From a virus (lineage: Duplodnaviria > Caudoviricetes), in IMG/VR virus record IMGVR_UViG_3300023297_000013, positions 1 through 51,401 of that record: a stretch of DNA of 51,401 nt, one strand, 5' to 3'. Shown here piece by piece: positions 13,124-49,616 of the stretch. A model generated the notes under the pieces. It was not told the origin of the DNA. It did no database searches and saw only the letters and a program-made list of their open reading frames with translations. Position 1 is the first letter of the stretch. Each line of letters begins with the position of its first letter. The position numbers and the translations under genes are program-made.

Positions 13124-13603
13124 CTAATATTTTATATCATCAAAAATTATAGGGACTTTTGTTTTAAGAGCAGTTGGTAATACTCCACGAGCAATTTGTG
13201 GCGATAGTCCATTTCTTATCTCTTGATTATATACAGCTTGTACTGCCTCAAAAAGTATTTCCCTTCTTAATCTTTGCACATTTGTTAAGCACCCAGGAAA
13301 TATAATTTGAATTCCGCCTTTAGAATAATTGCAATACCTTGTACTTTCCTGACTATAAGCCGCAAGCCTATGTCTTACAATTTCATGACTTACTCCTCTA
13401 TCACAAATAAATCTTACCGTAATACTGGCATGTTCAATCACAGAATGATGTCCTCGTTTTGTAATCATCTTTACAAATTTTTCCGCACTTCCTTCTGTAA
13501 TTTTTTCTTCGCTCTTATAACAAGTTCTCCCTGCCTTCTCGATAAGTTCTAACAAATCTGGCTGAATAAATAAAATTTCATGGCTTGGTTTTACCTCTTC
13601 CAT
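13124..13603 (-). CDS. thyX: FAD-dependent thymidylate synthase ThyX with apparent internal deletion near the C-terminus (possibly inactive)
   Basis: AGRTCYKS, GHHSVIEH, SHEIVRHRLAAYSQESTRY signature; ARGVLPTALKT joined directly to KVPIIFDDI. Confidence 0.85.
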   Translation of the reverse strand: MEEVKPSHEILFIQPDLLELIEKAGRTCYKSEEKITEGSAEKFVKMITKRGHHSVIEHASITVRFICDRGVSHEIVRHRLAAYSQESTRYCNYSKGGIQIIFPGCLTNVQRLRREILFEAVQAVYNQEIRNGLSPQIARGVLPTALKTKVPIIFDDIKY

Positions 13604-14019
13604 TTTCTTTCCTCCTCCTTTCTCTCTCCTTTCTTATTAATGAATTTTGGTAGTTCCACTATCAAAGATTCTTCTGCCATATCTTTTCCTGCCTTATCTG
13701 AACTACCAATTCTAAAGGGTCTATCGTCATAAGATTTATTTTGAATATACGTAAGCAACATCATACAGTTTGCAATAACATGACAAAGTGGATGTTCGCC
13801 TGATTCCTCATCTCTATCTTCTTTAAGATAAAACCACCTAACTAAATGCCGTAAGGTTGCCGCAAAAAGCTTGGCGAATCTAATTCCAGGTAGCCAAGTC
13901 CTTGTTCCATGGTACTTTACCCTTCCCTTTTCAAATACTCTTATTACCCCATCCATTACTTCTAACGGAACTAAAGACCAATCCAATTTTCCTTTGTATT
14001 CTTTATTTCCTTCTCTCAT
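13591..14019 (-). CDS. dATP/dGTP diphosphohydrolase-like protein (DUF5664)
   Basis: KLDWSLVP, GRVKY, W, RHL, DEESGEHPLCHVIAN motifs. Confidence 0.8.
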   Translation of the reverse strand: MREGNKEYKGKLDWSLVPLEVMDGVIRVFEKGRVKYHGTRTWLPGIRFAKLFAATLRHLVRWFYLKEDRDEESGEHPLCHVIANCMMLLTYIQNKSYDDRPFRIGSSDKAGKDMAEESLIVELPKFINKKGERKEEERKWKR

Positions 14020-23463: not shown

Positions 23464-26400
23464 TTAGCTTTTCCTTGGTACAAAAATCTTCAACAATCTG
23501 AAAAAAGAATTTAGTCCTTTTTTGAAGTACTTTTTATTCTCTGAATTGTAAAGAACTGCCGACGGGTGTAAACACCAAACGACCCACGCACCATACTCCT
23601 CGTTCCATATAACTTTTCCACTTAAATTCATAATTCCTGTTTTCTGTTGAGTAAAAAATTGTAGAGAAGTATTACCAAACGCTAAGATAACCACTGGCCG
23701 TACTTCTACAAGCTCTCGTTTTAAAAAAGTACTGCATTTTTTTATTTGTGAAGTAATTGGTTTTCTGGTTTTAGAAGGAAAACACTTACAAATATTTGTA
23801 ATATGAAATAAGCTTTTATCATATCCTCTTCTATTTATACTCTTCCATAATAATTTTCCTGTCTGCCCAACAAAACCAATTCCTTGTTTATCCTCTTCTT
23901 TTCCAGGAGCTTCACCAATAATCACAATATTATACTTTCCTGGGGTTGGAGTAACTGGGCTTTTACACTCCTTCCTAAGATCACAACGAGAACAGGCCAT
24001 AAGCTTATCATGCCCCGAAAACTCTACTTCTCTTAAAGCCGACTTCGGTGCTTTTCTAACTTCTTTTATGTCACCCGCTAACAATTTATCAATTACATCA
24101 AGTCGAATCTTACCATTAAAAAGAGTAAAGAGTTTTTTGTAACTGGCTTGAGAATTTACAACAATACGAAAATCAAAAAACGATTCTACTTCTTCATCTA
24201 CCTGAACACTATCATATTGATTATAAGAACCAATCTTATTAAGGATTTTTCCTAACACTCCTTTTTGCTTTACAACTACATTTGATTTCTTCTTGGTAAA
24301 AAACTTCTTAATATCATTAGTAGTTATTCCCGCATTAGCTATTTCAACAGCCTTGACAGCCCCTATACCCCGTACTTCTACGAAGGGTATATATAACTTA
24401 CCTTCTTTTGCGACCCACCTTGTAGCCTCGCTTATGCCTACCTTTGGTAATACAGCAGTCAGTCCTAAACGATACGCTTCTTCAATTAATACCGATTTCT
24501 TATCCTTTGCACCAAAAGTTAATGCCGCACAAATAAATTCAGTAGGAAAATATTTTTTTAACCACGCTGACTGGTATCCTAATAAAGCATAAGCAACAGA
24601 ATGGCTGGCATTAAAACTATATCTACAATGCTCTTCTAATCCAGTCCAAAATTCTTCTGCTTCTTTTCTCGAAAGGGTTTTTTGTTTTAAACATCCACGA
24701 ATAAATTTTTTCTTATATGGCATGAATTCTTTTTTACTTCTCTTCTTGCCAATTATCTTTCTAATTTTATCAGCAGTAGAATAAGACAAACCAGCAACTT
24801 CACTAATAACTTTCATCACCTGTTCTTGGAATACAACTACCCCATGAGTATCAGCAGTAATAGATTCATATATTTTATGTTTCGTTTCCCAAGAACCACC
24901 TCGTTTTCTTCTTATGTATTCGGCAGTCATTCCCGATTGCATAATTCCTGGTCGAACAAGAGCGACAATATCTCTTAAATCATTAAATTTCTTAACCCCA
25001 ACTTCACCAATCAAACTTGTTGTTGCCCTTGTATTTAACTGAAACAGCCCAACAGTATTTCCATTATCAATTTCTTGATAAACAGCCTTATCATCTATAT
25101 TTATTTTGTCAAAGTCAATATCTTGATTAGAATTATTTTTGATATTTTTTAATGTTTCCCCAAAAATAGAAAGAAGCTTTAATCTCAAAGCATCTAATTT
25201 CATAAGGCCAACAAATTCTGCATTATTCTTTTCCCAATTTACAAGAAGTACGTCTTTTCTCCTAAGCAAATTACATCTTCCGCTCTGATCTAATGGTTCA
25301 TTAGAAACAATCAAAGCCGCAGCGTGTTGAGAATAATTTTTTATTTGCCCTTCTAAAACTTTAGCGATTCTAATAACTTCAGGGTGTCTATCATTAAATT
25401 CTGCCCCTTCTTGATAATTATCGATAGACTCTTGTATTCCGGTATGTTCATCATTGTCTTCAATTAAATCTGTAAAACTATTGACTTCATCAAAAGGTAC
25501 GCTAAAAACTTTACTTACATCTTTTATAACAGCCTTTGCCTTCATTCTATTAAAAGAACTTACGTTAGCAATATGGCTATCTCCATACATCGTTTCAAGA
25601 TGCTGTTTTACAAGATGCCCCTTAATATGCTCAAAATCTACATCTATATCTGGATAGTCAATTCTGTCCTCGTTAATAAATCTACTAAAAAGTAATCCAT
25701 GTTTAATCGGATCAATAGCAGTAATTCCAAGTAAAAATGCAATAAGGCTTCCTGCCGCTGATCCTCTTCCTGGACCAACTAAAATATCATTTGATTTACA
25801 CCATTTAACCAATTCCCACACAATAAGAAAATAACGAGCGAATTTCTTCTTAACGATAAGATTGTACTCTTCCTTTAGACGAGAAAGATATCCTCCGCTT
25901 ATTTCTTTCTTAAACTTATTTTTATACCCTTCAAGACATAGTTCCCAAAAGAATTTCTTTTCTCTTAATACCCCTTTGACTCTTGGTAAATGAATTTCTT
26001 GTTTTGGAATTCTAAAAGAACTGCACTTCTCTGCTATCTCAATAGTATTTAAAAGATATTCTTTTTTGTAAGCATTTACTTTTCTTAATGCCCTTATCAT
26101 TTCTGACACAGATCGTAGATGCAATCCTCTAATATCGAATTTCCATCTATTGGGATCACTCCACAATTTTTTTGTTTGAATAGCAAGAAGTACTTCCTGT
26201 GCTTTCCAATCACTTCTTTGTATATAATGGCTATCGTTTGTCGCTATAATTTTACAGCCTGATTTTTTCGCAAGACGAATATTTAATTTGTTTGCTTTTA
26301 TTTGCCCATCTAATTGATGAGGCATTACTTCACAATATAAATCCTCTCCAATCTTATCTAACAAATCATAAAAAAACTTTTCTCCTTCTTTGCACTTTAT

Positions 26401-26823
26401 TAAAAACGAACTACAACAAGCAGTAGAAACAACCAACCCTTCGCAATGTTTTAGAAGCATTTTATAATCTATTCTTGGCCTATAATAAAGCCCTTCTAAA
26501 TTAGCATATGTAAGTAATCTACATAAATTATTAAAGCCTTCTTGATTCTTAACCAAAAGTAAAATATGCCCTCGCCTCTTATCATTTTTTACTTTTGCAT
26601 CTGGAACGATATAGGCTTCACAACCAAGTATTGGAGAAATATTATATTTATCGCAAGCTTTCTGAAATTCAATTAACCCATTTATAGACCCATGGTCTGT
26701 AAGAGCAAGATATTTGAACCCCATTTCAGAAGCCTTTTTTGCATAGGCATCTACCGTTCCTACTCCGTCAAGAACGCTATATTCACTATGCAAATGAAGA
26801 TGGGTGAAGTTTTTATTTTCCAT
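23464..26823 (-). CDS. dnaE: DNA polymerase III alpha (family C) with C-terminal family-4 uracil-DNA glycosylase domain
   Basis: PHP domain HLHLHSEYSVLDG, ALTDHG, TNDSHY; GPGRGSAAGS, YPDIDVDF, KLDAL, YSFNASHS; then CSRCDL, GEAPGKEED, FVG, TNICKCFP, HPSAVL. Confidence 0.95.
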   Translation of the reverse strand: MENKNFTHLHLHSEYSVLDGVGTVDAYAKKASEMGFKYLALTDHGSINGLIEFQKACDKYNISPILGCEAYIVPDAKVKNDKRRGHILLLVKNQEGFNNLCRLLTYANLEGLYYRPRIDYKMLLKHCEGLVVSTACCSSFLIKCKEGEKFFYDLLDKIGEDLYCEVMPHQLDGQIKANKLNIRLAKKSGCKIIATNDSHYIQRSDWKAQEVLLAIQTKKLWSDPNRWKFDIRGLHLRSVSEMIRALRKVNAYKKEYLLNTIEIAEKCSSFRIPKQEIHLPRVKGVLREKKFFWELCLEGYKNKFKKEISGGYLSRLKEEYNLIVKKKFARYFLIVWELVKWCKSNDILVGPGRGSAAGSLIAFLLGITAIDPIKHGLLFSRFINEDRIDYPDIDVDFEHIKGHLVKQHLETMYGDSHIANVSSFNRMKAKAVIKDVSKVFSVPFDEVNSFTDLIEDNDEHTGIQESIDNYQEGAEFNDRHPEVIRIAKVLEGQIKNYSQHAAALIVSNEPLDQSGRCNLLRRKDVLLVNWEKNNAEFVGLMKLDALRLKLLSIFGETLKNIKNNSNQDIDFDKINIDDKAVYQEIDNGNTVGLFQLNTRATTSLIGEVGVKKFNDLRDIVALVRPGIMQSGMTAEYIRRKRGGSWETKHKIYESITADTHGVVVFQEQVMKVISEVAGLSYSTADKIRKIIGKKRSKKEFMPYKKKFIRGCLKQKTLSRKEAEEFWTGLEEHCRYSFNASHSVAYALLGYQSAWLKKYFPTEFICAALTFGAKDKKSVLIEEAYRLGLTAVLPKVGISEATRWVAKEGKLYIPFVEVRGIGAVKAVEIANAGITTNDIKKFFTKKKSNVVVKQKGVLGKILNKIGSYNQYDSVQVDEEVESFFDFRIVVNSQASYKKLFTLFNGKIRLDVIDKLLAGDIKEVRKAPKSALREVEFSGHDKLMACSRCDLRKECKSPVTPTPGKYNIVIIGEAPGKEEDKQGIGFVGQTGKLLWKSINRRGYDKSLFHITNICKCFPSKTRKPITSQIKKCSTFLKRELVEVRPVVILAFGNTSLQFFTQQKTGIMNLSGKVIWNEEYGAWVVWCLHPSAVLYNSENKKYFKKGLNSFFRLLKIFVPRKS

Positions 26824-26887: not shown

Positions 26888-27493
26888 TCAACATGAGCCT
26901 ACATCAATCAACCCTTGTTTTAGCAAAAATTCAATTACCTCATCCACACATTGCTGCAAATTAAGTTTATCTGTAGCGATAATAAAATCAGAATGTTCAG
27001 GAATTTCATAAGGCGCAGAAATTCCCGTCATATTTATTATTTCACCCATGCGACCCTTTTCATAAAGACCTTTTGGATCACGCTTTGCACATTCTTCAAT
27101 ACTACATTTAATATATACTTCATAACAAGGCCAACCAGTCATTAACCTGCGTACGTATTCTCTGCTTTGCTTATATGGAGTAATAAAAGCGGCAAAAACG
27201 AGCAATCCCGCATCCACCATAATTTTGGACACCTCGGCAATACGGCGAACATTCTCTTTTCTGTCTTCAGAGCTTAAAGTTAAATCCTTATTTAATCCCG
27301 TTCTAATATTATCTCCATCAAGAACATAACTGCACACGCAAAGGGAATACAACTTTTCTTCAACAGCATGAGCAAGGGTGGACTTTCCACTTCCAGATAG
27401 ACCCGTGAACCAGAGCAGACCTCCGCTATGACCATTTAATAGATACCGATCAACAGTAGAAACAGATGATGGAGAAGGAAAAATATTATTCAT
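26888..27493 (-). CDS. cysC: adenylyl-sulfate (APS) kinase
   Basis: LWFTGLSGSGKSTLA, LDGDNIRTGLN, DRKENVRR, RDPKGLY, TGISAPYE. Confidence 0.95.
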   Translation of the reverse strand: MNNIFPSPSSVSTVDRYLLNGHSGGLLWFTGLSGSGKSTLAHAVEEKLYSLCVCSYVLDGDNIRTGLNKDLTLSSEDRKENVRRIAEVSKIMVDAGLLVFAAFITPYKQSREYVRRLMTGWPCYEVYIKCSIEECAKRDPKGLYEKGRMGEIINMTGISAPYEIPEHSDFIIATDKLNLQQCVDEVIEFLLKQGLIDVGSC

Positions 27494-28458
27494 ATCAATT
27501 CCCTAATCCCAACTCTTTTATTTTTTTCCCATGGCCTTGCAATTATTTCTGACATTGTTTTGTCAACTGTATTTTCTTCTCGTGCCCAGTCTACTTCTTC
27601 TTTTGTAGGTATTGGCAATGTTGCTTTACCCATTTTGTCCGGTAAGAATCCAACCCTGTAAGATATTGCATCACACCATTTGCATGGTATGAAATTCCTG
27701 TTTCTATCGTATAATAATTTTCTTGCGATATCGAATTCCTTGCCGTTCCAAATATCGTCTAAGTTCCCTTCCTTTTTTACTTCTCCACAATAGTAATGCC
27801 CCCTCCAATCATTACAACAAATAGCAATCTTACCATCCCATCTAATACTCAATTCCCTAAACGGCTTTGCGCATCTCTTCTTCATTGGAGAAAATAATGA
27901 AGGAGCGGCACACCCACAATGATTATTCAAAACGCTATGCCCCCCAGTTTTAGCATCTTGTATATCTTTTATATAGATAACTTTTTTGGTATCGATTCGA
28001 AACTTTTTATGTGGGCTTTCACCTCCAGGATATTCTTCGCCTTTTACTTTTGATTTGATTTTCTTTGAGAATGGATTATGACTATAATCATCTATACCAA
28101 GAATATTTATTCCATTAGAAAATAATCTTTTTACTTTTTCTTTTGGCGAAGGAAGAAGTCCAATCCCGTTCGTCAACATCGTTAATTGGTTTTGTGGAAG
28201 ATAACTTCTAAATATTTTTATAATTTCTAAATGTCTTGGATTTAAGGTAGGCTCGCCATGCATAGCAAACTCAATACGTGACCCCCATTTTGTTGCACCA
28301 ATTTGCTTTGCGATATTTTTACTACATTCTAACGACATAAATTTACATTCGTTTGGTTTTTTTCTTATGCCACGTATACCACAAAATTTACAAAATAAAT
28401 TACAGCCTTCTGTAAGCTCAACTTGTATTGCAAATGGTGGTTCTTGTTTTTCTTTCAT
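27490..28458 (-). CDS. radical SAM protein with SPASM/twitch domain
   Basis: CNLFCKFC cluster motif, HGEPTLNP, TNG, then CAKPF...ICCNDW...CKWC. Confidence 0.9.
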   Translation of the reverse strand: MKEKQEPPFAIQVELTEGCNLFCKFCGIRGIRKKPNECKFMSLECSKNIAKQIGATKWGSRIEFAMHGEPTLNPRHLEIIKIFRSYLPQNQLTMLTNGIGLLPSPKEKVKRLFSNGINILGIDDYSHNPFSKKIKSKVKGEEYPGGESPHKKFRIDTKKVIYIKDIQDAKTGGHSVLNNHCGCAAPSLFSPMKKRCAKPFRELSIRWDGKIAICCNDWRGHYYCGEVKKEGNLDDIWNGKEFDIARKLLYDRNRNFIPCKWCDAISYRVGFLPDKMGKATLPIPTKEEVDWAREENTVDKTMSEIIARPWEKNKRVGIRELI

Positions 28459-29237
28459 TTTATAATTTTCCCTTCTCTATCCAGCGCCCATCCAAATTCG
28501 GAAAGATTAATTTCGCGTAACTCATTATCATTCAAAACTTTTTTTAATTCAGATATAATTCCAAACTCCTCTATGTAGACTTTATACCTATTAACAAGAT
28601 CTTCAGGAGCTGCAGTTTTTTTAATGCCGGTAAACGAAGACCCCCCACCATAACTATGGATTTTATCTACCATATGGCCATCATTATTCGGAAGCCCCAA
28701 TCTCTTCGCAATTTTAATACGATATTTCTTTTTAGTCAACCAGTCATTATAGTTTAATCTAATACAAAAATTAAAGTTTTTATTAAGAAGAAGTTTTTTC
28801 CAATGAGCAATGCATTCGGAATACCATCCAGGAGGAGTGAATTTTTTATGTCTGCTATCAAATTTTAATCGGCTTGCGACATAGTTATATACGTCTCGAA
28901 CGACAATAATATATTTAATGTGACTATTTATTATCCCATATTTTTTATGCCTATACAGGCCATCTGAATATCTTAACGGGTCTTCGTATGTAGTAATAAC
29001 AAACGAATGAGATATTTTCAATCTTCCCCTTTCATATTCTCTCAATTGGATTTCGTTATTCGCATTATGGAACGGATATTTTATATTCCAATACTTGGTT
29101 GGACGACTCCACTTTACATTCGGCCGAAGAGAATTAATTAATACGCCCGATTCTTCAAAATGAGATGCGACCCATTCAACAATCGCATGGCCACCAGACC
29201 TTCTTTGGAAAAAGAGTCTATATTCTATTTGAGCCAT
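28455..29237 (-). CDS. PAPS-dependent sulfotransferase-fold protein
   Basis: QRRSGGHAI (5'-PSB-like loop), VVRDVYNYVAS (3'-PB-like), LNYNDW; two genes upstream of cysC in the same coupled string. Confidence 0.65.
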   Translation of the reverse strand: MAQIEYRLFFQRRSGGHAIVEWVASHFEESGVLINSLRPNVKWSRPTKYWNIKYPFHNANNEIQLREYERGRLKISHSFVITTYEDPLRYSDGLYRHKKYGIINSHIKYIIVVRDVYNYVASRLKFDSRHKKFTPPGWYSECIAHWKKLLLNKNFNFCIRLNYNDWLTKKKYRIKIAKRLGLPNNDGHMVDKIHSYGGGSSFTGIKKTAAPEDLVNRYKVYIEEFGIISELKKVLNDNELREINLSEFGWALDREGKIIK

Positions 29238-30061
29238 GATCTAATTCCTCCATTCGCCCTTCCCTTTTCATTAAAACTTTTCTTCCATTGTATAATGACG
29301 TCGATTCTTACTTTGCTATCAAAACCTTTCCATACTTTTGAACTTTCTTTTTTAACTACCCTTACGTATCTTGGAAACTTTTGTGCTAATAAAATAGCAC
29401 TTTCTTTTTGCATTTTAGATGTTCTGTATAAAGAGCAACCTCCATCAGCACCACTCTGATTTTGGCTCCATACATACTTATACGTAACACGATTTTTAAA
29501 TCCAAGTTGAAACAATGATAGCGTTACTAAAAAGTCTTCCATAACAAGCTGCTTACCATGCTTGTTTTCAAGAGAATCAAATGATACATTATGCTTTTCT
29601 TTTAACTCAATCATCTTTTCGCAATTATACGCATACGCATTATTCATTCTTGTAACTTCCAGATAATCTTCCTCTATTCTATTGTTACCGAATCTTTGAC
29701 TTATTCCTACATGTACCAATCCCTCTTCGAGCCAGCCTTCAAGGAGCATAACCATCTCAGCAAATTCTTTAGGACTACACCTATGCAATTTTAATTCTTT
29801 ATTACGAACAGAAAAATCCATATCATCATCTAACATCAATGCATATTTCCTTTTACTGTTCTCAAGAATCCATTGTCTTGTTTTACATATCCCCTTCTCA
29901 GGACATTCTATAACATTCGACCCATATAGTTCTTTATATCTTTTAAAATCTTTTTTATCAACCACAATGAAAGTATTTTTTATTAATCTTTTAGGTATAA
30001 AATTAAAGGTTCTTTGTTTTTCTGGTCTTCTATGGCTTGGTATATATATGGCTATCTTCAT
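29225..30061 (-). CDS. TET-associated (TAGT/GREB1-like) GT-A glycosyltransferase
   Basis: IYIPSHRRP, GICKTRQWIL, MLDDD, MEDFLVTL, GGCS motifs. Confidence 0.8.
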   Translation of the reverse strand: MKIAIYIPSHRRPEKQRTFNFIPKRLIKNTFIVVDKKDFKRYKELYGSNVIECPEKGICKTRQWILENSKRKYALMLDDDMDFSVRNKELKLHRCSPKEFAEMVMLLEGWLEEGLVHVGISQRFGNNRIEEDYLEVTRMNNAYAYNCEKMIELKEKHNVSFDSLENKHGKQLVMEDFLVTLSLFQLGFKNRVTYKYVWSQNQSGADGGCSLYRTSKMQKESAILLAQKFPRYVRVVKKESSKVWKGFDSKVRIDVIIQWKKSFNEKGRANGGIRSWLK

Positions 30062-30086
30062 AATTTTAATTCCCCTACTACTTCTT

Positions 30087-31514
30087 CTACTTCGTTAAAT
30101 CAATTCCTTCCTTTACCCATCTGGCCTCGTACTCACTTGGATTATAGACGTAAACATAATTATCTTCTTCGTCCATTCTAATAGGCATCATTTTTCCATG
30201 AAAATAATTTCTTGGATTTCCAGGAGACCTGAGATTATTCCACGTTTCCCTTGCAAAATCTAAGTACGTTATACCTCGCCTCTGACTTGCAGTCATTCCT
30301 GTAACACCAATATGATCCTGACCAAAAGTAGAGTCGCTTAAAAATGGACTTTCCTTTGGATCAAAAACTTTGCTAAATTTAAAATGAACAATTTTACCAT
30401 CACGATGAAATTTTTTTCTGGCTTCTTTTAGGGCGTAAGTCAATTGGCTCTTTCCCCAATTTTCCATTTCCTTATTCTCTTTATAGGTATCAGGCAACCC
30501 ACAACAACAACCAGACATCCCTAACTCTTTATAGTCGGGGTCACTACATGAAAATAAAATATCATTATCTACACAAAACGTATACATCTTTTTTACAATC
30601 TTCTCTTTCACTAATCTGTTAAGTCGCATGTATCCGCCTCGTTCACTTGGACTTAATGCTTTAAAATATTCTAACAAATCTTTTGTTCCTGTTAATTCTC
30701 CAAGCCATTTATACCTCTTAGCAATATGCTCATTATGCCTTTGGTCAATTGCCATGAACTCTGTACTTATCGCATTTATTCCCGCTTCTTTTGCTTGATG
30801 AAGTAAATCGTCAAGACCAATATCAGAAATTCCTATAATAAAAGGTCGAAGACGAAGTACGGTATAGTACCCCATATCTGATAAATGTTTTAATGCCTTT
30901 ATCCTTCTGCTCGTAACAGGGACTCCTATTTCTACTTGCTTACTCATTTCATCTGAAGGACAAACAATAGATACCTGAAAAGCAAAATTCTTTTGATGTG
31001 CATATTTTGTAAATAACTTCTCAAAGTTCGGACGGAAAACAGCCGATCCCTTAAAACTAAAAAGAGTTGGATAGCTTTCTTTTCCCAAAGCAGAAACAAT
31101 CTTATACCCGACTCCATTAACTTTTTCAAAATTACAGAAAGGAGAAGCAAGACCACCCCAATGAAATACAAACCTCTTAGAAAAAAAGTTCTTATGCATT
31201 GCCTTGAGTCTACTTGTTGGAGGCTTTCCCTTAATAGTAGCAACAAGCTTCTTCTCGTCTACAGAATGTAACTTATGAGAAAAGCTTGGATTTTGGCTTT
31301 TCATATAATATGCAAAACAGTATGTACACCCCATCGAGCAATAAGAATATTGGTCGAAGGTCATCGGTAAAGAACAATCCATAAACTCAGAACTTATTCT
31401 CGGACTGATATAAGTTCTGGATTTGTCTATTTTCATCCCCCTATTTTCTCGAATAAATTCCTGAGAGTCTCTTGTTACTTTCTTTTTTAAATCATCAAAC
31501 GATTCTTTTTTCAT
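30087..31514 (-). CDS. radical SAM protein, spore photoproduct lyase-like branch
   Basis: DQYSYCSMGCTYCF, RRIKAL, LRLRPFIIG, additional CCCG cluster. Confidence 0.8.
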   Translation of the reverse strand: MKKESFDDLKKKVTRDSQEFIRENRGMKIDKSRTYISPRISSEFMDCSLPMTFDQYSYCSMGCTYCFAYYMKSQNPSFSHKLHSVDEKKLVATIKGKPPTSRLKAMHKNFFSKRFVFHWGGLASPFCNFEKVNGVGYKIVSALGKESYPTLFSFKGSAVFRPNFEKLFTKYAHQKNFAFQVSIVCPSDEMSKQVEIGVPVTSRRIKALKHLSDMGYYTVLRLRPFIIGISDIGLDDLLHQAKEAGINAISTEFMAIDQRHNEHIAKRYKWLGELTGTKDLLEYFKALSPSERGGYMRLNRLVKEKIVKKMYTFCVDNDILFSCSDPDYKELGMSGCCCGLPDTYKENKEMENWGKSQLTYALKEARKKFHRDGKIVHFKFSKVFDPKESPFLSDSTFGQDHIGVTGMTASQRRGITYLDFARETWNNLRSPGNPRNYFHGKMMPIRMDEEDNYVYVYNPSEYEARWVKEGIDLTK

Positions 31515-31897
31515 AACCTTATCTTGCCTCCCCTACGGGTTCTGAAAGAATACTTTTTGCCATCCCATTTAATTCTTCCTTCCTCTATCAAGCGAATCAG
31601 CTCCGTTAAAAATAATACTTCGTGACAATTATTTTCTATGTAAGAATTTATAGTAACAATCTTCCCCAACCTCTTAATAAAATCGGGACTGGGAAAAGAA
31701 AAGAAAAGAGTTCGCTTCTTGAAATTTGACATCCCTGTTTTAGTCCCCTTGTACTTTGGAATCGGCATTGGTTTTAAAAGATGCATTTCCAATACTCTCT
31801 GTTCTTGCTTTGTAGTAGAAGGAAGAATCATCTTTTCAAATCTTATCATTTGATTTTCTTCCTTACTTCTTTTATTGACAAACTTCGTTATGTCCAT
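31511..31897 (-). CDS. hypothetical protein
   Basis: Coupled to neighbours (ATGA overlap). Confidence 0.7.
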   Translation of the reverse strand: MDITKFVNKRSKEENQMIRFEKMILPSTTKQEQRVLEMHLLKPMPIPKYKGTKTGMSNFKKRTLFFSFPSPDFIKRLGKIVTINSYIENNCHEVLFLTELIRLIEEGRIKWDGKKYSFRTRRGGKIRL

Positions 31898-32305
31898 TCA
31901 TTCCCCTTTCTTTAATCCATAATAAGATTCTGGTGGCTTCCCTTTATGCCTTTTAAGAATGTCAATTATTTGTTGCGAATGATATCCATTGCAACAAAAA
32001 GTACTACTAATCTTGGCTAAGAGTTTTGGATTCTGTTTTTTCTTCCTCTTGGGATATTTAAGATATGGTGCATTCTTTTGTTTTGGAACCCCTAAATTAT
32101 AAAGAGTATCTCTTGCCCAAGACGGCAGACGAGATACGAACCTATTCATATCGATAGAAAACAAAATGGTTCCTTTCTGAAAAGAAAGAATTCTGTTAAC
32201 CATAAATTCGTTCTGTACTTTCACTTCTTCTTTTGTAAAAAGAGCACTTGCTATACCAAAACTATTATTGCTATTATTTTTCTTTTTCATTTTGTTTTTA
32301 TCCAA
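31898..32305 (-). CDS. probable clamp loader small subunit (T4 gp62-like)
   Basis: FMVNRILS motif, size, position directly after the clamp loader ATPase. Confidence 0.6.
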   Translation of the reverse strand: MDKNKMKKKNNSNNSFGIASALFTKEEVKVQNEFMVNRILSFQKGTILFSIDMNRFVSRLPSWARDTLYNLGVPKQKNAPYLKYPKRKKKQNPKLLAKISSTFCCNGYHSQQIIDILKRHKGKPPESYYGLKKGE

Positions 32306-33215
32306 AAGAAATATTTACTTCCATTAAATCCATTAACTCAAGACAACAAGCGGTACAATTGATTTCCTTATCTGGAACAGTCCTATCTTTATAAAGATAG
32401 CCAGCAGTAATAATTGCCGCCTCAGACTTAACATCTTTATCCAAAAACTCAGGGATAAAAATATTGAACAGATATTTATACACCCATACAAAATCCATCT
32501 TCCCATTAAATATTTCTCTTATCTTAAACAAGTTCCCGTCTAATAAAAATTCTCTAAATAAATTCAGGTCTATCAAGACTTCGGAATCTTCAAGCTTCTT
32601 GCCGATACTATTTTTCTGAAGAAGATTAATAATAGACCTGATATCGGGATAGCAAAGTTCTATTATCCTGTTAATACTTTTTTCTTTATATTTAATCCCT
32701 TCTTTGTCCAGCATCTTTTTAAGATGAATAAGAAGTTTGTCCTTAGGATAAGTATCAAACTGAAAAGGAATACATCTGGAAGCAATCTCCGGAATGACCA
32801 TGTCAATATGATTGCAAGTAAATATAAAACGACAATTTTTATGGTAGGTCTCTACCGTATTTTTCAATGCCATTTGTGCATCAAAAGTAAGACCGTCTGC
32901 TTCGTCTAAAAAAACGACATTCAATTTATCAGAACTTGTCCTCTTGGCAGTAGCAAATTGTTTTACTTTTATTTTAATTGTTGCTATTCCTCGATCACCA
33001 CTACTTGCATTGAGAATTAACTTCCTCGAAGCAGTTGCTTTCAAAAGAATCATAGCCAATGTAGTCTTACCACTTCCAGGCGGTCCATAGAAAAGTACAT
33101 GAGGAATTTGTTTTTCTCTTATATATTCTCTAAATATTTTCTTTGCCTTTAGTGGTAAGGTCATTGAAGATAAACTGTCAGGCCGAAACTTTTCGTACCA
33201 TATAAGATTCTTCAA
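32298..33215 (-). CDS. clamp loader AAA+ subunit (RFC small / T4 gp44-like)
   Basis: WYEKFRP, GPPGSGKTT, LNAS, LDEADGL, SRC motifs. Confidence 0.9.
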   Translation of the reverse strand: MKNLIWYEKFRPDSLSSMTLPLKAKKIFREYIREKQIPHVLFYGPPGSGKTTLAMILLKATASRKLILNASSGDRGIATIKIKVKQFATAKRTSSDKLNVVFLDEADGLTFDAQMALKNTVETYHKNCRFIFTCNHIDMVIPEIASRCIPFQFDTYPKDKLLIHLKKMLDKEGIKYKEKSINRIIELCYPDIRSIINLLQKNSIGKKLEDSEVLIDLNLFREFLLDGNLFKIREIFNGKMDFVWVYKYLFNIFIPEFLDKDVKSEAAIITAGYLYKDRTVPDKEINCTACCLELMDLMEVNISFG

Positions 33216-42913: not shown

Positions 42914-43783
42914 TTATATATCAAGTTTTCTTTTTAACTTAAAGTCGGGGATTTTCTGAAGGCTTCCAATAATCTTTTCTAACTTATTGCCAAGCTTGTT
43001 TCGAAAGTCTTCATTCCCTTTAAGTCTTTCAGCACTTGTCCCCCTCATCTGTTTTTGTAAATCTTTCATAATAGTGTGTAACTTTTTTTCGTCTACATGA
43101 TCTTTCCACAGGCCATCCCATCTTTTTAGAAACTTGCTAATAGACCCGACCGTACCAGCATTGATTTTACCACTGTCGCATTGTCCAGCTAATTTTTCAA
43201 TTCGCTTGAACAGCATATTTCCCACGACATTGATCGTCATTTCTTCCATTTTGGAAATCATTTGCGTGAACTTTTCCTGTTCCCTTTTGTAAAGGGCAGG
43301 CGAAAGGGTCTTGGCTTCTTTAGACGGAGCGGCAAAATGTAAAAAGTTCCAGAAAAAATAAAACTTGTTTTTGATTCCTGGAATTGATGGATAATTCTTT
43401 TTGTCATAAAATTCAGGATACTGCTCCTGAAAATTACTTTCCATTTCTTTTATATTGTCGCACAAAATCTTCACTCTGTTTTTGTACTCCTCTCGAAACT
43501 CGTTGAGTTTTTTATCGACTTCAACAATTTTCTCTTTTGGAATCCAGAAAACATTATCAATTGGAAAAGGTAAAGAATTCCGAAGAAGCAAGCCTTTAGC
43601 CGACCTACGAATCGTACTCAAATCTTTAAGGTAAGTTCTGTCACTAATAATATCTTGTCTTGCTCGAACTATTTCGCGTGGTATTCTTTTACCAAAATGT
43701 TTACTTGGCATCTTAATAATAGCATCCCAACGACCCATTTTCAAACTACAAAAAACACCTTCTTTTAATTGATTCTCTTTCAT
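42914..43783 (-). CDS. DUF3150-like protein
   Basis: GVFCSLKMGRW, SLPFP...FWIP, YPS...KF pattern; association with AAA ATPase. Confidence 0.6.
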   Translation of the reverse strand: MKENQLKEGVFCSLKMGRWDAIIKMPSKHFGKRIPREIVRARQDIISDRTYLKDLSTIRRSAKGLLLRNSLPFPIDNVFWIPKEKIVEVDKKLNEFREEYKNRVKILCDNIKEMESNFQEQYPEFYDKKNYPSIPGIKNKFYFFWNFLHFAAPSKEAKTLSPALYKREQEKFTQMISKMEEMTINVVGNMLFKRIEKLAGQCDSGKINAGTVGSISKFLKRWDGLWKDHVDEKKLHTIMKDLQKQMRGTSAERLKGNEDFRNKLGNKLEKIIGSLQKIPDFKLKRKLDI

Positions 43784-43817
43784 AATAATCCCCCTTTTAT
43801 TTATTTATTTTGGTTTA

Positions 43818-43874
43818 CCTCATCAGTACATAAGTTACCATCTTATGCAGACTCGGGCTACGCCCGAGTTTCGG
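43818..43874 (-). ncRNA. type II hammerhead ribozyme, copy 1
   Basis: CC-GAAA-CTCGGGC(GTA)GCCCGAG-TC/TGCATAAG(ATGGTAA)CTTATGTA-CTGATGA-GG; predicted cleavage between 43850 and 43849. Confidence 0.93.
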
Positions 43875-43977
43875 ATATCCTCTTTTAATAAAGAATTAAA
43901 AAAAGAAATAAAACGATTAAAATAAGAATCGAAGAATATTTACATAATTCTTTAAGCATTTGTTTTAGCATTGTTCC

Positions 43978-44184
43978 TTACCTCTCATCTTTTGTAATTT
44001 TATAATTATCTTTATCTCCATTAAAATAATATCGAACTTTACTTTCAGATACCCTTAATGTTCTTGCTAATTGGACAATGAATTGTCTGTGAGCAATTAC
44101 TGAATTTTTTGCAGAAGTCCAAATTTTATGAACTTCTCCATACCAATTGAATTGACCAAAATAAAGACATTTAAACTCTTTCAT
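43978..44184 (-). CDS. hypothetical protein
   Basis: 68-aa ORF with GAGG RBS. Confidence 0.7.
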   Translation of the reverse strand: MKEFKCLYFGQFNWYGEVHKIWTSAKNSVIAHRQFIVQLARTLRVSESKVRYYFNGDKDNYKITKDER

Positions 44185-44195
44185 TTTATTTCCTC

Positions 44196-44396
44196 TTAAG
44201 TAACATTAACATATTCCATTGTTACGCCAAGCAGGTGGTCATAATCTCCGTCCATTGCCTCTTTTAAATACTGGTCAATATATTCCTTATCAGCACCAGC
44301 GTCTTTTAAGACTTTAGTAACAACTCCCATAATTGCAAAGACATTGCTGCTTTCCCCAACAAGTTTTACTGTCGGAGTTTCTTTCGGTTTTTCCAT
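44196..44396 (-). CDS. conserved small phage hypothetical protein
   Basis: VKLVGESSNVFAIMG...GDYDHLL motif; GGGGGA RBS after ribozyme 2. Confidence 0.75.
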   Translation of the reverse strand: MEKPKETPTVKLVGESSNVFAIMGVVTKVLKDAGADKEYIDQYLKEAMDGDYDHLLGVTMEYVNVT

Positions 44397-44420
44397 AATA
44401 TCCCCCTTATTAATTGTTTA

Positions 44421-44477
44421 CCTCATCGGTACATAAGGAACAACCTTATGCAGACTCGGGCTACGCCCGAGTTTCGG
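44421..44477 (-). ncRNA. type II hammerhead ribozyme, copy 2 (variant loop I; core CCGATGA)
   Basis: Stem I TGCATAAGG(TTGTT)CCTTATGTA; U4C change in the core. Confidence 0.8.
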
Positions 44478-44489
44478 TTAAGATTAAAA

Positions 44490-45899
44490 TTAAATATCTA
44501 ATTGCCTTTTGCCATTATTAAACTGGATTTCCTCAGCAGGGATTGTTCGGCCTTTTGCCCAATCCCGCAACCCGTTAATATTCTCAGCCATTGTTTTGGC
44601 CTGAGGTATAATACATTTAACAGCTTCTTCAAAACCAATTCCCCTCATATCAGCGATATGAACTAATGCTTCAACTTCTGCCCCTGAAAAATCCTTCATT
44701 AAATCCCTTCTCCATCTTTTTGGAAGACTTAATCCGGCCTTCTTAGCATAATATTTTAAAATCTCATCTTTAACATTATCTGTCGGCAAATCAATAAAAA
44801 ATGGAGATGTATCCCAACGACCTGGTCTGATATATTCTCCAGGAATACCAGAAAAGGAATTTGCTGTTCCAACAATATAAACCCCTTTTGGACGATCTTG
44901 AAGAAAGTCAAGCCAACGGCCTGTCGCTCTTCGTGTAGTTCCACTATCCAATGAACCGTCTGACCCCGAACCAGCAAATTGTTTCTCAAATTCATCGATA
45001 AGAACAAGGCAATCACCGATTGCCGTAATAAGATTAATTACAGTATCTATATTACTGTCCGTTTCTCCTTGATACTTACTAAACAATTTTCCCATATTGA
45101 TAGATAATCCAAACTTTCCTGTTTCGCCGACAACTGCTTTCATAAGAGCAGTCTTGCCGCATCCTGGAGGACCAATCGTCATAATTCCTTTTGACTTTGG
45201 ATTATTAATTGTTCCCATAATAAACTTCTTAATATTCTTGTACCCGATTATATTTGAAAAATTTGTGGTCGGTTCCAAGACATCAAGAAAACCAGTCTTG
45301 CGAATTGTAATAGCCTTGTAATCATTAATAGTTTTTCTTGAAAATGATTTGCCTTCTGTTTCTACAAAAGACAAGGCCAAGATTTGTTCCAGTTCCACTC
45401 TTGTAAACCCCTTACATGACGATATTAAACGAGTAAGACTGTCACCCTTAGGAATTACCTTTGAATTTGGAGCGACATGGTTAATGGCGTCTGATATCTC
45501 TACTTCATTTGGCAATGGCAAATTAAGCAACAAAAAATCTTTCTGTAATTCCAACGGAATCTTTTCCACTGGAGAAACACAAATAATTGCCTTTCCTGCG
45601 CTTGCCCATGAAGCAAGGTTATCTTGTATAGTTTGAATTATCTGTGGTTTATCCGCATACCAATGAAAGTTATAAGCAAACAAAAGAGTAAAATCTTCTG
45701 CATTATTAAACTGCTCTAAGGTCTTCATTGGGTTCGGTTCAGCAGTACATGTCCACTCCATAATTTCATACTTTCCCCCATCCTTTCTTTCAAAAGAACG
45801 GAGCATTTCATAGACATTTTTTCGTACTCTATTTGGTTCAGAAGTTTTTAACCAAAAGGCTGGAAATCCTGCACGCAAATAATTTATAATCTTCTTCAT
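44490..45899 (-). CDS. AAA+ ATPase, Ycf46-like
   Basis: IPLEL, GPPGCGKT, LIDEFEK, VGTAN, RPGRWD, FSGAEVE, LRDWA motifs. Confidence 0.85.
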   Translation of the reverse strand: MKKIINYLRAGFPAFWLKTSEPNRVRKNVYEMLRSFERKDGGKYEIMEWTCTAEPNPMKTLEQFNNAEDFTLLFAYNFHWYADKPQIIQTIQDNLASWASAGKAIICVSPVEKIPLELQKDFLLLNLPLPNEVEISDAINHVAPNSKVIPKGDSLTRLISSCKGFTRVELEQILALSFVETEGKSFSRKTINDYKAITIRKTGFLDVLEPTTNFSNIIGYKNIKKFIMGTINNPKSKGIMTIGPPGCGKTALMKAVVGETGKFGLSINMGKLFSKYQGETDSNIDTVINLITAIGDCLVLIDEFEKQFAGSGSDGSLDSGTTRRATGRWLDFLQDRPKGVYIVGTANSFSGIPGEYIRPGRWDTSPFFIDLPTDNVKDEILKYYAKKAGLSLPKRWRRDLMKDFSGAEVEALVHIADMRGIGFEEAVKCIIPQAKTMAENINGLRDWAKGRTIPAEEIQFNNGKRQLDI

Positions 45900-45933
45900 A
45901 ATAATCCCCCTTTTATTTATTTATTTTGGTTTA

Positions 45934-45990
45934 CCTCATCAGTACATAAGTTACCATCTTATGCAGACTCGGGCTACGCCCGAGTTTCGG
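45934..45990 (-). ncRNA. type II hammerhead ribozyme, copy 3
   Basis: Identical 57-nt core to copy 1. Confidence 0.93.
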
Positions 45991-45991
45991 A

Positions 45992-46141
45992 TTAAAGCTT
46001 TCTTATAATCACTTCCGATTCACAGTCTATCCAAAAAGAAACAAGTGCCTTTTTTGATTCGTGTTTGACCTTTTCAATTACAATTTCAACTTCATTTGTT
46101 TTTTTGTGAACTACTGCTGCTATGATTCTAATTTCTACCAT
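45992..46141 (-). CDS. 49-aa hypothetical protein (below ORF-track cutoff)
   Basis: MVEIRIIAAVVHKK...IIRKL*, AAGGA RBS, stop 1 nt before ribozyme 3. Confidence 0.55.
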   Translation of the reverse strand: MVEIRIIAAVVHKKTNEVEIVIEKVKHESKKALVSFWIDCESEVIIRKL

Positions 46142-46169
46142 AATACTTGTCCTTTCTACTCTTTAAAAT

Positions 46170-46559
46170 TTAACATACAAGAGTAATTTTTACTGCCCCT
46201 GTTTCTTTTATATTTTCAGAAAAGGAATTTTTTACAATATCCATTGGTACGTTTTGAAAAATAAGTTTAGTGCTATATTCTTGCAAAACTTCACCAAGCT
46301 TTTTCATCGTATGAGGCTGAGAACCAAAATGGTCATAAGAAATTTGACCTTCTTTATTAATAGCAATTGGATATCTCCAGCCATCAAGAGAAATAGAAGC
46401 AACAGCCTGAACAGTATTGGAACCAAAGAATTTAACTGTTTGCTCACTCTGCTCATTTAACCTATTCAAAAAATTAACCTTGTGCCCTTTATTTAGAGCA
46501 ACATTACAAAACAAATTGACATCTTTTACTTTAATAGCATATGTTGATGTATGGCTCAT
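46170..46559 (-). CDS. DUF1257 / Ycf35-like protein
   Basis: MSHTST...IKVKD start, GWRYPI, located between DUF2997 and Ycf46-like ATPase. Confidence 0.75.
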   Translation of the reverse strand: MSHTSTYAIKVKDVNLFCNVALNKGHKVNFLNRLNEQSEQTVKFFGSNTVQAVASISLDGWRYPIAINKEGQISYDHFGSQPHTMKKLGEVLQEYSTKLIFQNVPMDIVKNSFSENIKETGAVKITLVC

Positions 46560-46570
46560 GGCAATCCCCT

Positions 46571-46777
46571 TTAGCCGCAGTGCCCTTCTGGAACAGGGTC
46601 TACGAGAATATTTCGTTCGTTGATTTCATAGTAACAATCCTTGTAATCAGTGTTGGTTCTTTTAAATAAATTATCTAAAAACTCCGTCGCTTCTTCACAA
46701 GAAGTACCACTAAAGCCATGAGCAGAAACTTCTATCGCCCCATCTTTACCGACAATGATTTCCACTGTTTTACTCAT
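46571..46777 (-). CDS. DUF2997-like protein
   Basis: IIVGKDGAIEV...GFSGTSCEEAT...YY motif. Confidence 0.8.
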   Translation of the reverse strand: MSKTVEIIVGKDGAIEVSAHGFSGTSCEEATEFLDNLFKRTNTDYKDCYYEINERNILVDPVPEGHCG

Positions 46778-46805
46778 ATTTTATCCTCCTTATTAAATTA
46801 GTTTA

Positions 46806-46862
46806 CCTCATCAGTACATAAGTTACCATCTTATGCAGACTCGGGCTACGCCCGAGTTTCGG
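46806..46862 (-). ncRNA. type II hammerhead ribozyme, copy 4
   Basis: Identical 57-nt core; 3' tail ACTA instead of ACCA. Confidence 0.92.
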
Positions 46863-46868
46863 ATTAGA

Positions 46869-47864
46869 TTAAATTGATTTTTTAATTCTGTAGAAGCTTT
46901 CATTCTGTGTCATTACCAAAGTAATTTCCATTCCCTCTTTTTTAAAACGACGGATGTTTCCCTTAACTCTACCATTTGCCTTTTTTGTAGGTAACTTAAA
47001 TTCCTTTTCCAAAAGGCCGACAAGCTCTGAAAGACTTATCCCCTTAATCATTTGTTCTTTAATCAAATCAGTGATTCTTTGTCTTACTGATTTTTCTTTT
47101 GGTTCTTTTAATTCTTTCTTATCAGCTTTCTTATCAGCTTTCTTATCAGCTTTCTTATCAGCTTTTTTATCACGTCTTTTTATTACTTTTTTATCACGTC
47201 TTTTTATTACTTTTTTATTTACTTTTTTATTTACTTTTTTATTTACTTTTCTCAAAGGGTCATTTTTTTCTTCAAACCCTTTTGGAAGAGTAACATTCGC
47301 CCTGTCATAAGCTGTTCGAAGAGCTTTTCTACAGGCCGTAACGTATCCTTTTGGTATTTTTTCATTTTTGTTTTCCCATAAAATATCAAGTTCGTTCAAA
47401 TGAAATAATGCTTTTTTGGAAACTTCCTGGTCAACATTATCAAAGAAAGGAAAGCCTGATGGAATATGAATTATCTGAACTACTCCACCTGACTTTTGTT
47501 TTGCTTCAAAGCAAGGAATTTTTATTCCTTCTACTTCTTCTTTTACTTCTTCTTTTACTTCTTCTTTTACTTCTTCTTTTACTTCTTCTTTTACTTCTTT
47601 TTTTGACTTCTTAACGGACTTGATTATGGGCTTGACAGGAGCAATAGACTTCTTTACTTCCTTTTTTAATCCTTTTGTCAAAGCTTCTGCAATTGTATCT
47701 TTAAAAACTTTGTAAGCCTTACATTTCGCACAGCTAACATCTTTAAGAGAAGCTTTCTTGTCCACAATCAAACCAGCCTGTTTTTTGTCGCAAAGTGCGC
47801 AACCATCAATTACTACATGAAGTACTCTTCCCTTTGGTGATTTTCCAAATTTTAATGCTGTCAT
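46869..47864 (-). CDS. Lys-rich hypothetical protein with N-terminal zinc finger and low-complexity repeats
   Basis: H...C...CAKC; EVKE, KKVN, KKAD repeats from 12-nt tandem units. Confidence 0.75.
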   Translation of the reverse strand: MTALKFGKSPKGRVLHVVIDGCALCDKKQAGLIVDKKASLKDVSCAKCKAYKVFKDTIAEALTKGLKKEVKKSIAPVKPIIKSVKKSKKEVKEEVKEEVKEEVKEEVKEEVEGIKIPCFEAKQKSGGVVQIIHIPSGFPFFDNVDQEVSKKALFHLNELDILWENKNEKIPKGYVTACRKALRTAYDRANVTLPKGFEEKNDPLRKVNKKVNKKVNKKVIKRRDKKVIKRRDKKADKKADKKADKKADKKELKEPKEKSVRQRITDLIKEQMIKGISLSELVGLLEKEFKLPTKKANGRVKGNIRRFKKEGMEITLVMTQNESFYRIKKSI

Positions 47865-47898
47865 AATAATCCCCCTTTTATTTATTTATTTTGGTTTA

Positions 47899-47955
47899 CC
47901 TCATCAGTACATAAGTTACCATCTTATGCAGACTCGGGCTACGCCCGAGTTTCGG
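47899..47955 (-). ncRNA. type II hammerhead ribozyme, copy 5
   Basis: Identical 57-nt core to copy 1. Confidence 0.93.
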
Positions 47956-47961
47956 TTATGT

Positions 47962-48885
47962 TTAAAATGAATCGATAAGTTTTGCAATATCTTTAACTTG
48001 TTTTATATTAAGTTCTTTGTCAATTCCCTTAATAGAATAAGAAAGTTTATTGTCTGTTTCGGTCGTTGCTATCACCTTTAACTTTTTATAGTGAACTTCT
48101 TTCGAATCATCAAAAACAACCATTCGTTGATTTCTACCATATGAATGACTGTAACGGTTCAAGATTTCTTCTTTCGTAATTCCGAAGGCCTCAATTAACT
48201 TCTCAATAAAAGTTGACTTTTTTTCTCTCTTTATTGCCATCTTTTCTGCCGCTTTCGTAATCTCAAGAATTATTTTCTCAATTCTTTTGTGAAGACTCTG
48301 TGCTAAGTTCTTTGCACCAAAATCTTTTTTTAACCTATCAGCAGAATAAGAATATAAACTACAACCAATTTTTAAGGAATAGCCTGTCTGCCGATAATTA
48401 ATACTTCTACTATATACGCCTTCTCTATATATAGAAAACATTACCGAAGCATTATTTTCACCTTCATAAAATTTCCTGATTATTTTCGTATTTTTTTCAT
48501 TAAGAAAATAATCAGGATTTTCTTTTTTTAAGTCGGCTTCAAGCTGTTTCCAGTTTTTTGCTTCCTCAAGTACTGCGGCCTTTTGTGCAATCTCTCTTAT
48601 AATTTCTCGCTCGCATTTTTTACACTGACCATTAGGATTTAAAGCACTTTTAATATCAACTCTTTTATGACAGACGTTACATTCGACAGCATCTCTGGCA
48701 CAAATAAAATCAGATTTAATAACCAACTTTTGTTCAAGCTCTTCAGCCTTGTTTATTAAGGTTTGCAGTGCATGAACTTTTTTAATTTCATTGTAAACCT
48801 TTATATCCGCGACCTTAACCTTGTCAGGATAACCATTTTTACCAACAATGATTTCTATTGTTTCACCATTATTAACTTCTTTCAT
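47962..48885 (-). CDS. hypothetical protein with CxxC...CxxC
   Basis: 307-aa ORF with AGGAGG RBS after ribozyme 6. Confidence 0.75.
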   Translation of the reverse strand: MKEVNNGETIEIIVGKNGYPDKVKVADIKVYNEIKKVHALQTLINKAEELEQKLVIKSDFICARDAVECNVCHKRVDIKSALNPNGQCKKCEREIIREIAQKAAVLEEAKNWKQLEADLKKENPDYFLNEKNTKIIRKFYEGENNASVMFSIYREGVYSRSINYRQTGYSLKIGCSLYSYSADRLKKDFGAKNLAQSLHKRIEKIILEITKAAEKMAIKREKKSTFIEKLIEAFGITKEEILNRYSHSYGRNQRMVVFDDSKEVHYKKLKVIATTETDNKLSYSIKGIDKELNIKQVKDIAKLIDSF

Positions 48886-48926
48886 AATAATCCTCCTTTT
48901 AAATGTTTATTAATTATTTTGGTTTA

Positions 48927-48983
48927 CCTCATCAGTACATAAGTTACCATCTTATGCAGACTCGGGCTACGCCCGAGTTTCGG
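48927..48983 (-). ncRNA. type II hammerhead ribozyme, copy 6
   Basis: Identical 57-nt core; abuts the stop codon at 48984. Confidence 0.93.
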
Positions 48984-49214: not shown

Positions 49215-49241
49215 AATATATCCTCCTTATTAATTTTGGTT

Positions 49242-49305: not shown

Positions 49306-49317
49306 CTTTATTTACCC

Positions 49318-49515: not shown

Positions 49516-49556
49516 AATAATCCTCCTTTTAAATGTTTATTAATTATTTTGGTTTA

Positions 49557-49613: not shown

Positions 49614-49616
49614 ATT

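Follow-up and report, generated by a model that had tools for sequence, protein, structure and literature searches.

To our knowledge, phages obtain the 5-hydroxymethyl handle for base hypermodification by two routes, either through a thymidylate-synthase homolog acting before replication or through an O2-dependent dioxygenase acting after it. A 5-hydroxymethylpyrimidine is required in characterised phages for sugar transfer as well as for the route through a P-loop kinase and an amino acid:DNA transferase (AADT) (PMC8989533 and 10.1101/2023.12.21.572611). Spore photoproduct lyase (SPL), a radical S-adenosylmethionine (SAM) enzyme, generates an allyl radical on thymine, to which Cys140 gives back hydrogen; when this cysteine is removed, other reagents trap the radical (PMC3467042). 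Here we analyse a six-gene cassette in IMGVR_UViG_3300023297_000013, a 51,401-nucleotide Caudoviricetes record from IMG/VR that was studied over its whole length (hereafter, the window). One of its genes, RS1, encodes a radical SAM enzyme with the SPL fold. The cassette is very probably a DNA-modification locus, and the RS1 family probably provides the entry enzyme, which is predicted to oxidise the methyl group of thymine.

An original prediction, made from the sequence alone, had described five tightly packed genes at 26888-31514. All five open reading frames (ORFs) are present there on the minus strand, with the spacing it gave (one 25-nt gap, then overlaps of 13, 4 and 4 nt), and Pfam and PHROGs agree in placing them where it did, between the clamp-loader genes and the DNA polymerase. 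The upstream flank is a clamp-loader pair at 31898-33215 (small gene 31898-32305, large gene 32298-33215; PHROGs 225 and 168), and the downstream flank is a PolIII-alpha with a C-terminal uracil-DNA glycosylase (UDG) domain identified by Pfam (23464-26823), both also on the minus strand. What had been overlooked is a sixth minus-strand gene at 31511-31897, which overlaps RS1 by 4 nt. All six reading frames are intact.

RS1 (30087-31514, minus strand, 475 aa) carries the radical SAM motif CxxxCxxC (C59, C63 and C66), invariant in all 80 RS1 sequences compared, and its model matches a partial TIM barrel, so that it shows both marks of the radical SAM superfamily. Four additional cysteines (C47, C314, C337 and C338) are also invariant. 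The structural model is of high quality (predicted local distance difference test, pLDDT, 93.7), and the SPL-like identity already suggested for this protein is borne out, with SPL filling Foldseek ranks 1-6 and aligning over 279 residues at a root-mean-square deviation of 3.7 (VIA Z 17.6, next 15.4). RS1 positions 124 and 155 are 31 residues apart, as are SPL Asp143 and Lys174; when the two pairs are matched by this spacing, an invariant glycine (Gly121, 80/80) falls at the position of SPL Cys140, a correspondence located by motif spacing and not by residue-level structural alignment. Since the hydrogen-donor position is a glycine in every sequence, RS1 is not an SPL. Nor is it an ortholog of gp53, the radical SAM enzyme of phage M6, to which the RS1 profile gives a score of just 14 bits; the two are distant relatives (20-26% identity, E 4e-6). 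A true gp53 ortholog, 39-60% identical, is a separate gene adjoining RS1 in locus L042 of record G028, where RS1 is followed by this ortholog (which contains an intein), a pyridoxal-phosphate (PLP) enzyme, an AADT and a kinase (L042:11281-15044). Because G028 carries M6 gp51-53-like genes alongside RS1 and its partner, with no hydroxymethylase, RS1 is not the gp53 glycinyl-thymine isomerase. In its own right, this locus represents an M6-like pathway without hydroxymethylase, in a record with terminal repeats. Split or enlarged RS1 genes were seen in L027, L034, L041, L047 and L051, one of which has confirmed intein domains; genes that harbour inteins are often essential ones of DNA metabolism.

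The RS1 family is broad, with 633 homologs and 86 distinct loci (distinct sequences at 95% identity, the remote locus L054 left out), drawn from viral records (54 loci), metagenomes (the best 80 of 183 stretches) and genome collections (4). RS1 falls below the NCBIfam cut-offs of two radical SAM families (PA0069, 45.9 of 360 bits; Rv2578c, 38.5 of 430 bits), a PDB sequence search returned nothing meaningful, and among GenBank phages it gives a single weak match and no close one. A search of 185,579 species genomes gave four matches, three of them on bin contigs of 3-4 kb and the fourth on a 64-kb contig equal in size and match to the viral locus L050. The family is phage-borne.

The sixth gene encodes a small, basic protein of 128 aa that belongs to no known family (no match in Atlas or PHROGs, and no PHROG common to its members). 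Of the 66 distinct loci with sufficient flanking sequence, 59 have the small gene ahead of RS1; a stricter rule gives 53 of 73. RS1 and this protein are predicted to form a complex with a score of 0.87, against 0.00 for the best of three controls; at least 65% of contacts are shared between runs, the pLDDT of the partner is at least 76, and the predicted interface contains E37 and P43, its two most conserved residues. The mark used for this score was reached by 116 of 157 solved pairs and by 2 of 215 mismatched pairs, counts that are only rough because the alignments and ligands were our own. The gene thus belongs to the cassette, and the complex model predicts that its product is an RS1 subunit. 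The conserved core of RS1 loci is RS1 plus this small partner; the five genes of the original prediction, compared across neighbourhoods, do not form one conserved unit.

What follows this core differs among loci. We considered the 53 distinct loci with at least 3 kb of downstream sequence and the genes within 7 kb of RS1. A glycosyltransferase (GT), AADT or P-loop kinase is present in 48 of them: 22 have a TAGT, 14 a GT-B-like enzyme, 14 a P-loop kinase and 8 an AADT. A second radical SAM enzyme, RS2, accompanies RS1 in 15, and a B12 radical SAM enzyme in 5. Starting from RS2 instead, we took the best 80 of 160 stretches, removed four copies of the window and two in which no RS2 ORF was called, and collapsed the rest for identity to 61 distinct loci. 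An M6-type dUMP hydroxymethylase alone occurs in 51 of these, RS1 alone in one, neither in eight and both in one, where the hydroxymethylase match (257 aa, 33 bits; median 428) is a short, different enzyme; as a control, M6 gp58 scores 425 bits against the same profile. RS1 and the M6-type hydroxymethylase thus stand in for one another next to a common set of downstream enzymes.

Other sources of the handle were looked for. No match to a TET/JBP enzyme, a hydroxymethylase or other thymidylate-synthase-family protein, or a C5-methyltransferase was found in the window or in G001, a larger contig of the same phage (99.9% identical, 81% complete), in line with the original prediction, which had seen none. 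When 15 records, including two from the window's phage, were scanned in six frames (G031 minus its last 1 kb), a hydroxymethylase was found only in G038, which lacks RS1, and in none of the 14 RS1-bearing records; the TET domain of Cr30 had no match in any of the 15. The dioxygenase profile PF12851, for which the Cr30 gp129 control worked, matched none of 39 records and none of 125 motif-selected ORFs out of 729. PF00145 (C5-methyltransferase) was likewise found in 0 of 39 records, on which ground we rejected 5-methylcytosine as the substrate, although 5-methylcytosine made by the host could still serve. ThyX is present in the window and in 12 of the 39 records. Given that none of these 14 RS1-bearing records has a match to that hydroxymethylase or to TET, RS1 likely supplies 5-hydroxymethyluracil without oxygen.

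The gene after RS1 encodes a TAGT (GT-A) glycosyltransferase (29225-30061, minus strand, 278 aa), an assignment in which the profiles concur with the earlier one (PF20691, 57.7 bits against a cut-off of 27.5; phrog_842, E 7e-46). Its motifs R62, DDD78-80 and EDF175-177 are all intact, and its three best relatives in GenBank phages adjoin a hydroxymethylase. In a FastTree tree, the TAGTs of RS1 loci and of hydroxymethylase loci are intermixed (3 changes). From these sequence relationships, the enzyme is predicted to transfer a sugar onto 5-hydroxymethyluracil. RS2 (27490-28458, minus strand, 322 aa) is, as had been proposed, a radical SAM/SPASM protein (PF04055 and PF13186). It has 1177 homologs, gives only one weak match in GenBank phages, adjoins a TAGT in 47 of the 61 loci and is fused to one in L271. 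We also considered RS2 as a sulfate-linked maturase, which is unlikely, as a sulfotransferase stands alongside in only 2 of the 61 loci. RS2 likely tailors the sugar and is a candidate DNA-sugar tailoring enzyme. TAGT and RS2 derive from hydroxymethyluracil-glycosylation clusters. Separately, L229-L303 form a widespread cluster type of a hydroxymethylase, a TAGT or GT-B and RS2.

The protein at 28455-29237 (minus strand, 260 aa) is a sulfotransferase of the 3'-phosphoadenosine 5'-phosphosulfate (PAPS) type from a family not covered by Pfam, as judged from motifs and fold. Its model has a pLDDT of 92.8, and sulfotransferases fill the first 38 Foldseek ranks shown, the best match at E 1e-4 with a TM-score (TMq) of 0.40, the range being only 0.40-0.48. 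The original prediction had allowed that this gene might prove to be a kinase or other P-loop protein; the kinase reading is rejected in view of the sulfotransferase motifs and the appearance of kinases only from Foldseek rank 40. It has no Pfam match and a single-sequence PDB search gave nothing meaningful, while its family profile matches a solved sulfotransferase (E 0.009). The conserved motifs RRSGxHA and RDxxNxxASR are presumably the 5'- and 3'-phosphate-binding motifs. The family has 2634 representatives at E 0.001; in a scan of 24 members, three carry a GT2, GT8 or GT9 fusion and a fourth carries Stf0, so that the acceptor is probably a sugar. In a quick tree, all six TAGT-adjacent sulfotransferases fall in one branch of 10 rows (SH-aLRT, a Shimodaira-Hasegawa-like approximate likelihood-ratio test, 96), in which long branches meet; the TAGT-adjacent label needs 4 changes. 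The protein is basic (pI 9.7), as are many non-DNA members, and the isoelectric point does not set the sulfotransferases in DNA contexts apart from others. The last gene (26888-27493, minus strand, 201 aa) encodes CysC, an adenylyl-sulfate (APS) kinase, as was recognised from the start (TIGR00455, 222 bits against a cut-off of 138.7; about 50% identical to an annotated cysC). It is a lineage-specific addition, and in L005, the closest relative, a homing-endonuclease-like gene fills its slot.

The original prediction had proposed a route from radical SAM activation of a pyrimidine through glycosylation to sulfation. This order fits every comparative test that we ran, with the base narrowed from a pyrimidine to thymine. 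In the proposed mechanism, RS1 would flip thymine out of DNA as SPL does, and the 5'-deoxyadenosyl radical would abstract a hydrogen from the 5-methyl group. With a glycine at the Cys140 position, the allyl radical would be oxidised and then hydrated; loss of one electron and capture of water would give the hydroxymethyl group without O2, the electron acceptor perhaps being a second metal site on C47, C314, C337 and C338. The modelled SPL fold makes action on DNA more likely than on a nucleotide. The TAGT would then produce a base-J-like glycosyl-hydroxymethyluracil, RS2 would change the sugar by radical chemistry, and the sulfotransferase would use PAPS, which CysC would make from host APS, to sulfate one of the sugar's hydroxyls. 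The product might serve to shield the DNA from restriction nucleases and glycosylases. That the sulfate sits on a DNA-linked sugar is an even proposition, and the full route, from radical SAM-derived 5-hydroxymethyluracil through the sugar to CysC-fed sulfation, falls slightly short of that. We advance more tentatively the claim that a two-subunit SPL-fold radical SAM enzyme constitutes a third, O2-independent route to 5-hydroxymethyluracil and leads to the first sulfated, radical-tailored nucleobase glycan.

Several observations weigh against this route, and we take them together with the explanations that they would favour. Sulfation is an occasional add-on, the sulfotransferase occurring in 2 of the 53 RS1 loci and CysC in one. 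RS1, its partner, TAGT and RS2 could glycosylate DNA while the sulfotransferase and CysC serve a different target, a glycan of the virion or one linked to protein; we regard this as unlikely. Such a division would suit L141:2309-3708, where a TAGT and a sulfotransferase lie between the prohead protease and major capsid genes, and the placement of the sulfotransferase family's other viral members, most of which are found among structural genes or in general glycan loci. It would also suit the family's fusions to GT2, GT8 and GT9, the phage's own late glycosylation set (a GT4, a methyltransferase and nucleoside diphosphate (NDP)-sugar genes) and the CysC that stands in a late glycan island in G019. 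Since CysC is missing from this slot in the closest relative and lies among late glycan genes in G019, it is better read as a donor booster than as proof of the target. Against such a division, the sulfotransferase directly follows TAGT within the replication operon in the window, in L005 and in a third, shorter locus (L056), the combination of TAGT, this sulfotransferase family and RS2 recurs beside a hydroxymethylase in G038 and L216, and the cultured phage phiRSL1 repeats the pairing, though its sulfotransferase is from an unrelated family. There is a slim chance that the sulfotransferase instead sulfates the 5-hydroxymethyl group itself, providing a leaving group that takes the role of the phosphate added by the 5-hydroxymethyluracil DNA kinase. 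This would be analogous to the kinase step described in PMC8989533 and would fit the basic charge of the protein, but neither the window nor G001 has an AADT, fusions to glycosyltransferases occur in the family, and many non-DNA members are just as basic.

The entry step has difficulties of its own. Five of the 53 RS1 loci have no recognised handle-using enzyme, and the GT-B label of two neighbour clusters comes from one weak Pfam match. The window record is 65% complete and the phage is covered only to 81%, through G001; 5-17% of phage dioxygenases escape PF12851 (10.1101/2025.08.14.668559, section 8); and an anoxic habitat and host are not established. The thymidylate-synthase profile PF00303 was found in none of the nine RS1 records that are at least 90% complete and in 4 of 28 less complete ones. 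In L049, a 470-aa thymidylate-synthase-fold protein is encoded directly after RS1 (L049:11317-12729), with an Asp at what we take, by a residue rule, to be the cytosine-selecting position. RS1 could thus be a later tailoring or lesion-processing enzyme, like gp53 or SPL, with the handle coming from an unrecognised phage or host enzyme. The L049 gene, the distant kinship with gp53, the SPL fold and the many ORFs without a family in RS1-bearing genomes all lean towards this. We consider it quite unlikely, however, because RS1 occurs with chemically unrelated downstream sets, a true gp53 ortholog accompanies RS1 in G028, the SPL Cys140 position is Gly in RS1, and RS1 and the hydroxymethylase nearly exclude each other. 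A further difficulty is confined to the window: its RS1 has Ser at position 124, where relatives have Asp (162 distinct motifs) or Glu (2) and gp53 likewise has Asp. According to PMC3467042, the matching Asp143 of SPL binds the SAM amino group. The family may work as proposed while the window's own cassette is weakened or dead through loss of this residue, for which the probability appears small. Ser124 is unique, its TCT codon is two base changes from an Asp codon, and it shows no variant in four runs. On the other hand, RS1 deviates at only 3 of 158 conserved columns (relatives' median 3) and RS2 at 1 of 81 (median 1), all six frames are intact, and the SPL site employs a Ser besides the Asp (PMC3467042). 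Judged from the alignment, Ser124 may be tolerated, altering or impairing; on balance, we expect the window's RS1 copy to be active. Oxygen-independent entry through RS1, followed by glycosylation and sulfation on DNA, is the reading that we retain.

Other features of the phage bear on supply and setting. A ThyX-family protein (13124-13603, minus strand, 159 aa, spanning profile positions 8-149 of 191; PF02511, E 3e-31) suggests that the phage likely makes ordinary thymidine monophosphate. The adjoining gene at 13591-14019 is dATP/dGTP diphosphohydrolase-like (PF18909), and no purine-modification partner was noticed in the window. Pfam identifies a GDP-mannose 4,6-dehydratase (4655-5773) and an NDP-sugar C-methyltransferase (6678-7949), both on the minus strand, as a possible donor supply; they lie near the terminase and are perhaps part of a virion-glycan set. 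UDG-fused polymerases of family A have been reported from T-modified phages (PMC13697223), and the UDG-fused polymerase of the window (23464-26823) is of family C. Seven copies of an intergenic repeat of about 120 nt, 64-94% alike, occur at 43772-49631, several of them directly upstream of minus-strand start codons; from its sequence and placement, the repeat looks like a repeated early promoter/ribosome-binding-site cassette. Tandem repeats of 12 nt lie at 47102-47611 within a 331-aa ORF (46869-47864), and the head region of G001 encodes a 693-aa protein with a topoisomerase IB catalytic domain (L144:13146-15227). The stretch occurs in 24 listed runs, every one of them a salt lake metagenome (13 are possible sources), and no RNA run is among them. 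Contigs from four public runs have no listed difference from the window; two cover it whole and may be its source. Our host search did not identify the host.

If this route is correct, radical SAM entry would explain DNA hypermodification by phages of anaerobes and would provide an enzyme for anaerobic thymine C-H functionalisation. A sulfated sugar would give DNA an anionic decoration of a new kind, of interest for the evasion of restriction and glycosylases and for labelling DNA with enzymes. The predicted partner subunit and the caveat over Ser124 guide co-expression and the choice of homolog. As to precedent, Iyer et al. 2013 (NAR 41:7635) may have remarked on sulfotransferase or radical SAM genes next to TAGT, which could bear on novelty. 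Listings from searches of the open-access literature contained no description of the RS1 family or of a sulfated base, and the terms "radical", "rSAM" and "sulfo" are absent from the main text of the phage GT-A paper (10.1101/2023.12.21.572611).

Compared with SPL (PMC3467042), RS1 shares the best fold match and the Asp143/Lys174 spacing; it differs in its low identity (12-14%), its length (475 vs 340 aa), the Gly at the Cys140 position, the four extra invariant cysteines, the predicted partner subunit and its phage-borne nature. A parallel arrangement in a cultured phage is that of Ralstonia phage phiRSL1, whose ORF230-238 are annotated as three TAGTs, a sulfotransferase, an APS-kinase-like protein and NDP-sugar genes. 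This cluster (L201:8259-16653) also has HMUDK-helical and hydroxymethylase genes, and so has a dUMP (deoxyuridine monophosphate) hydroxymethylase, not RS1. Its sulfotransferase (Sulfotransfer_2, PF03567) has no match to the window's family, and an open-access search found no paper on a phiRSL1 modified base. Phage clusters that pair TET/JBP dioxygenases (5mYOX) with GT-A enzymes resemble the cassette in their R..DDD..ED[YF] motifs (10.1101/2023.12.21.572611), in the order proposed here, post-replicative methyl oxidation followed by base-J-like glycosylation (the same source and 10.1101/2025.08.14.668559) and in one dioxygenase subclass that also requires a partner protein (10.1101/2025.08.14.668559). 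The window, in contrast, has no TET or C5-methyltransferase match, and SAM would take the place of O2 and 2-oxoglutarate as oxidant. With M6, PaMx11 and ViI, the cassette would share the 5-hydroxymethyluracil handle, and the same hydroxymethylase family flanks TAGT and RS2 in its relatives; M6, too, has an SPL-like radical SAM enzyme (gp53), which acts on DNA, and relatives of RS1 have kinase, AADT and PLP genes in common with M6-type clusters. M6 differs in that its handle comes from a dUMP hydroxymethylase before replication, that gp53 is an isomerase and that, in PMC8989533, on which these M6 comparisons draw, neither a sugar nor a sulfate is involved. The cassette is best placed as a variant of phage thymidine hypermodification, with the radical SAM entry step and the sulfated sugar as its candidate novelties.

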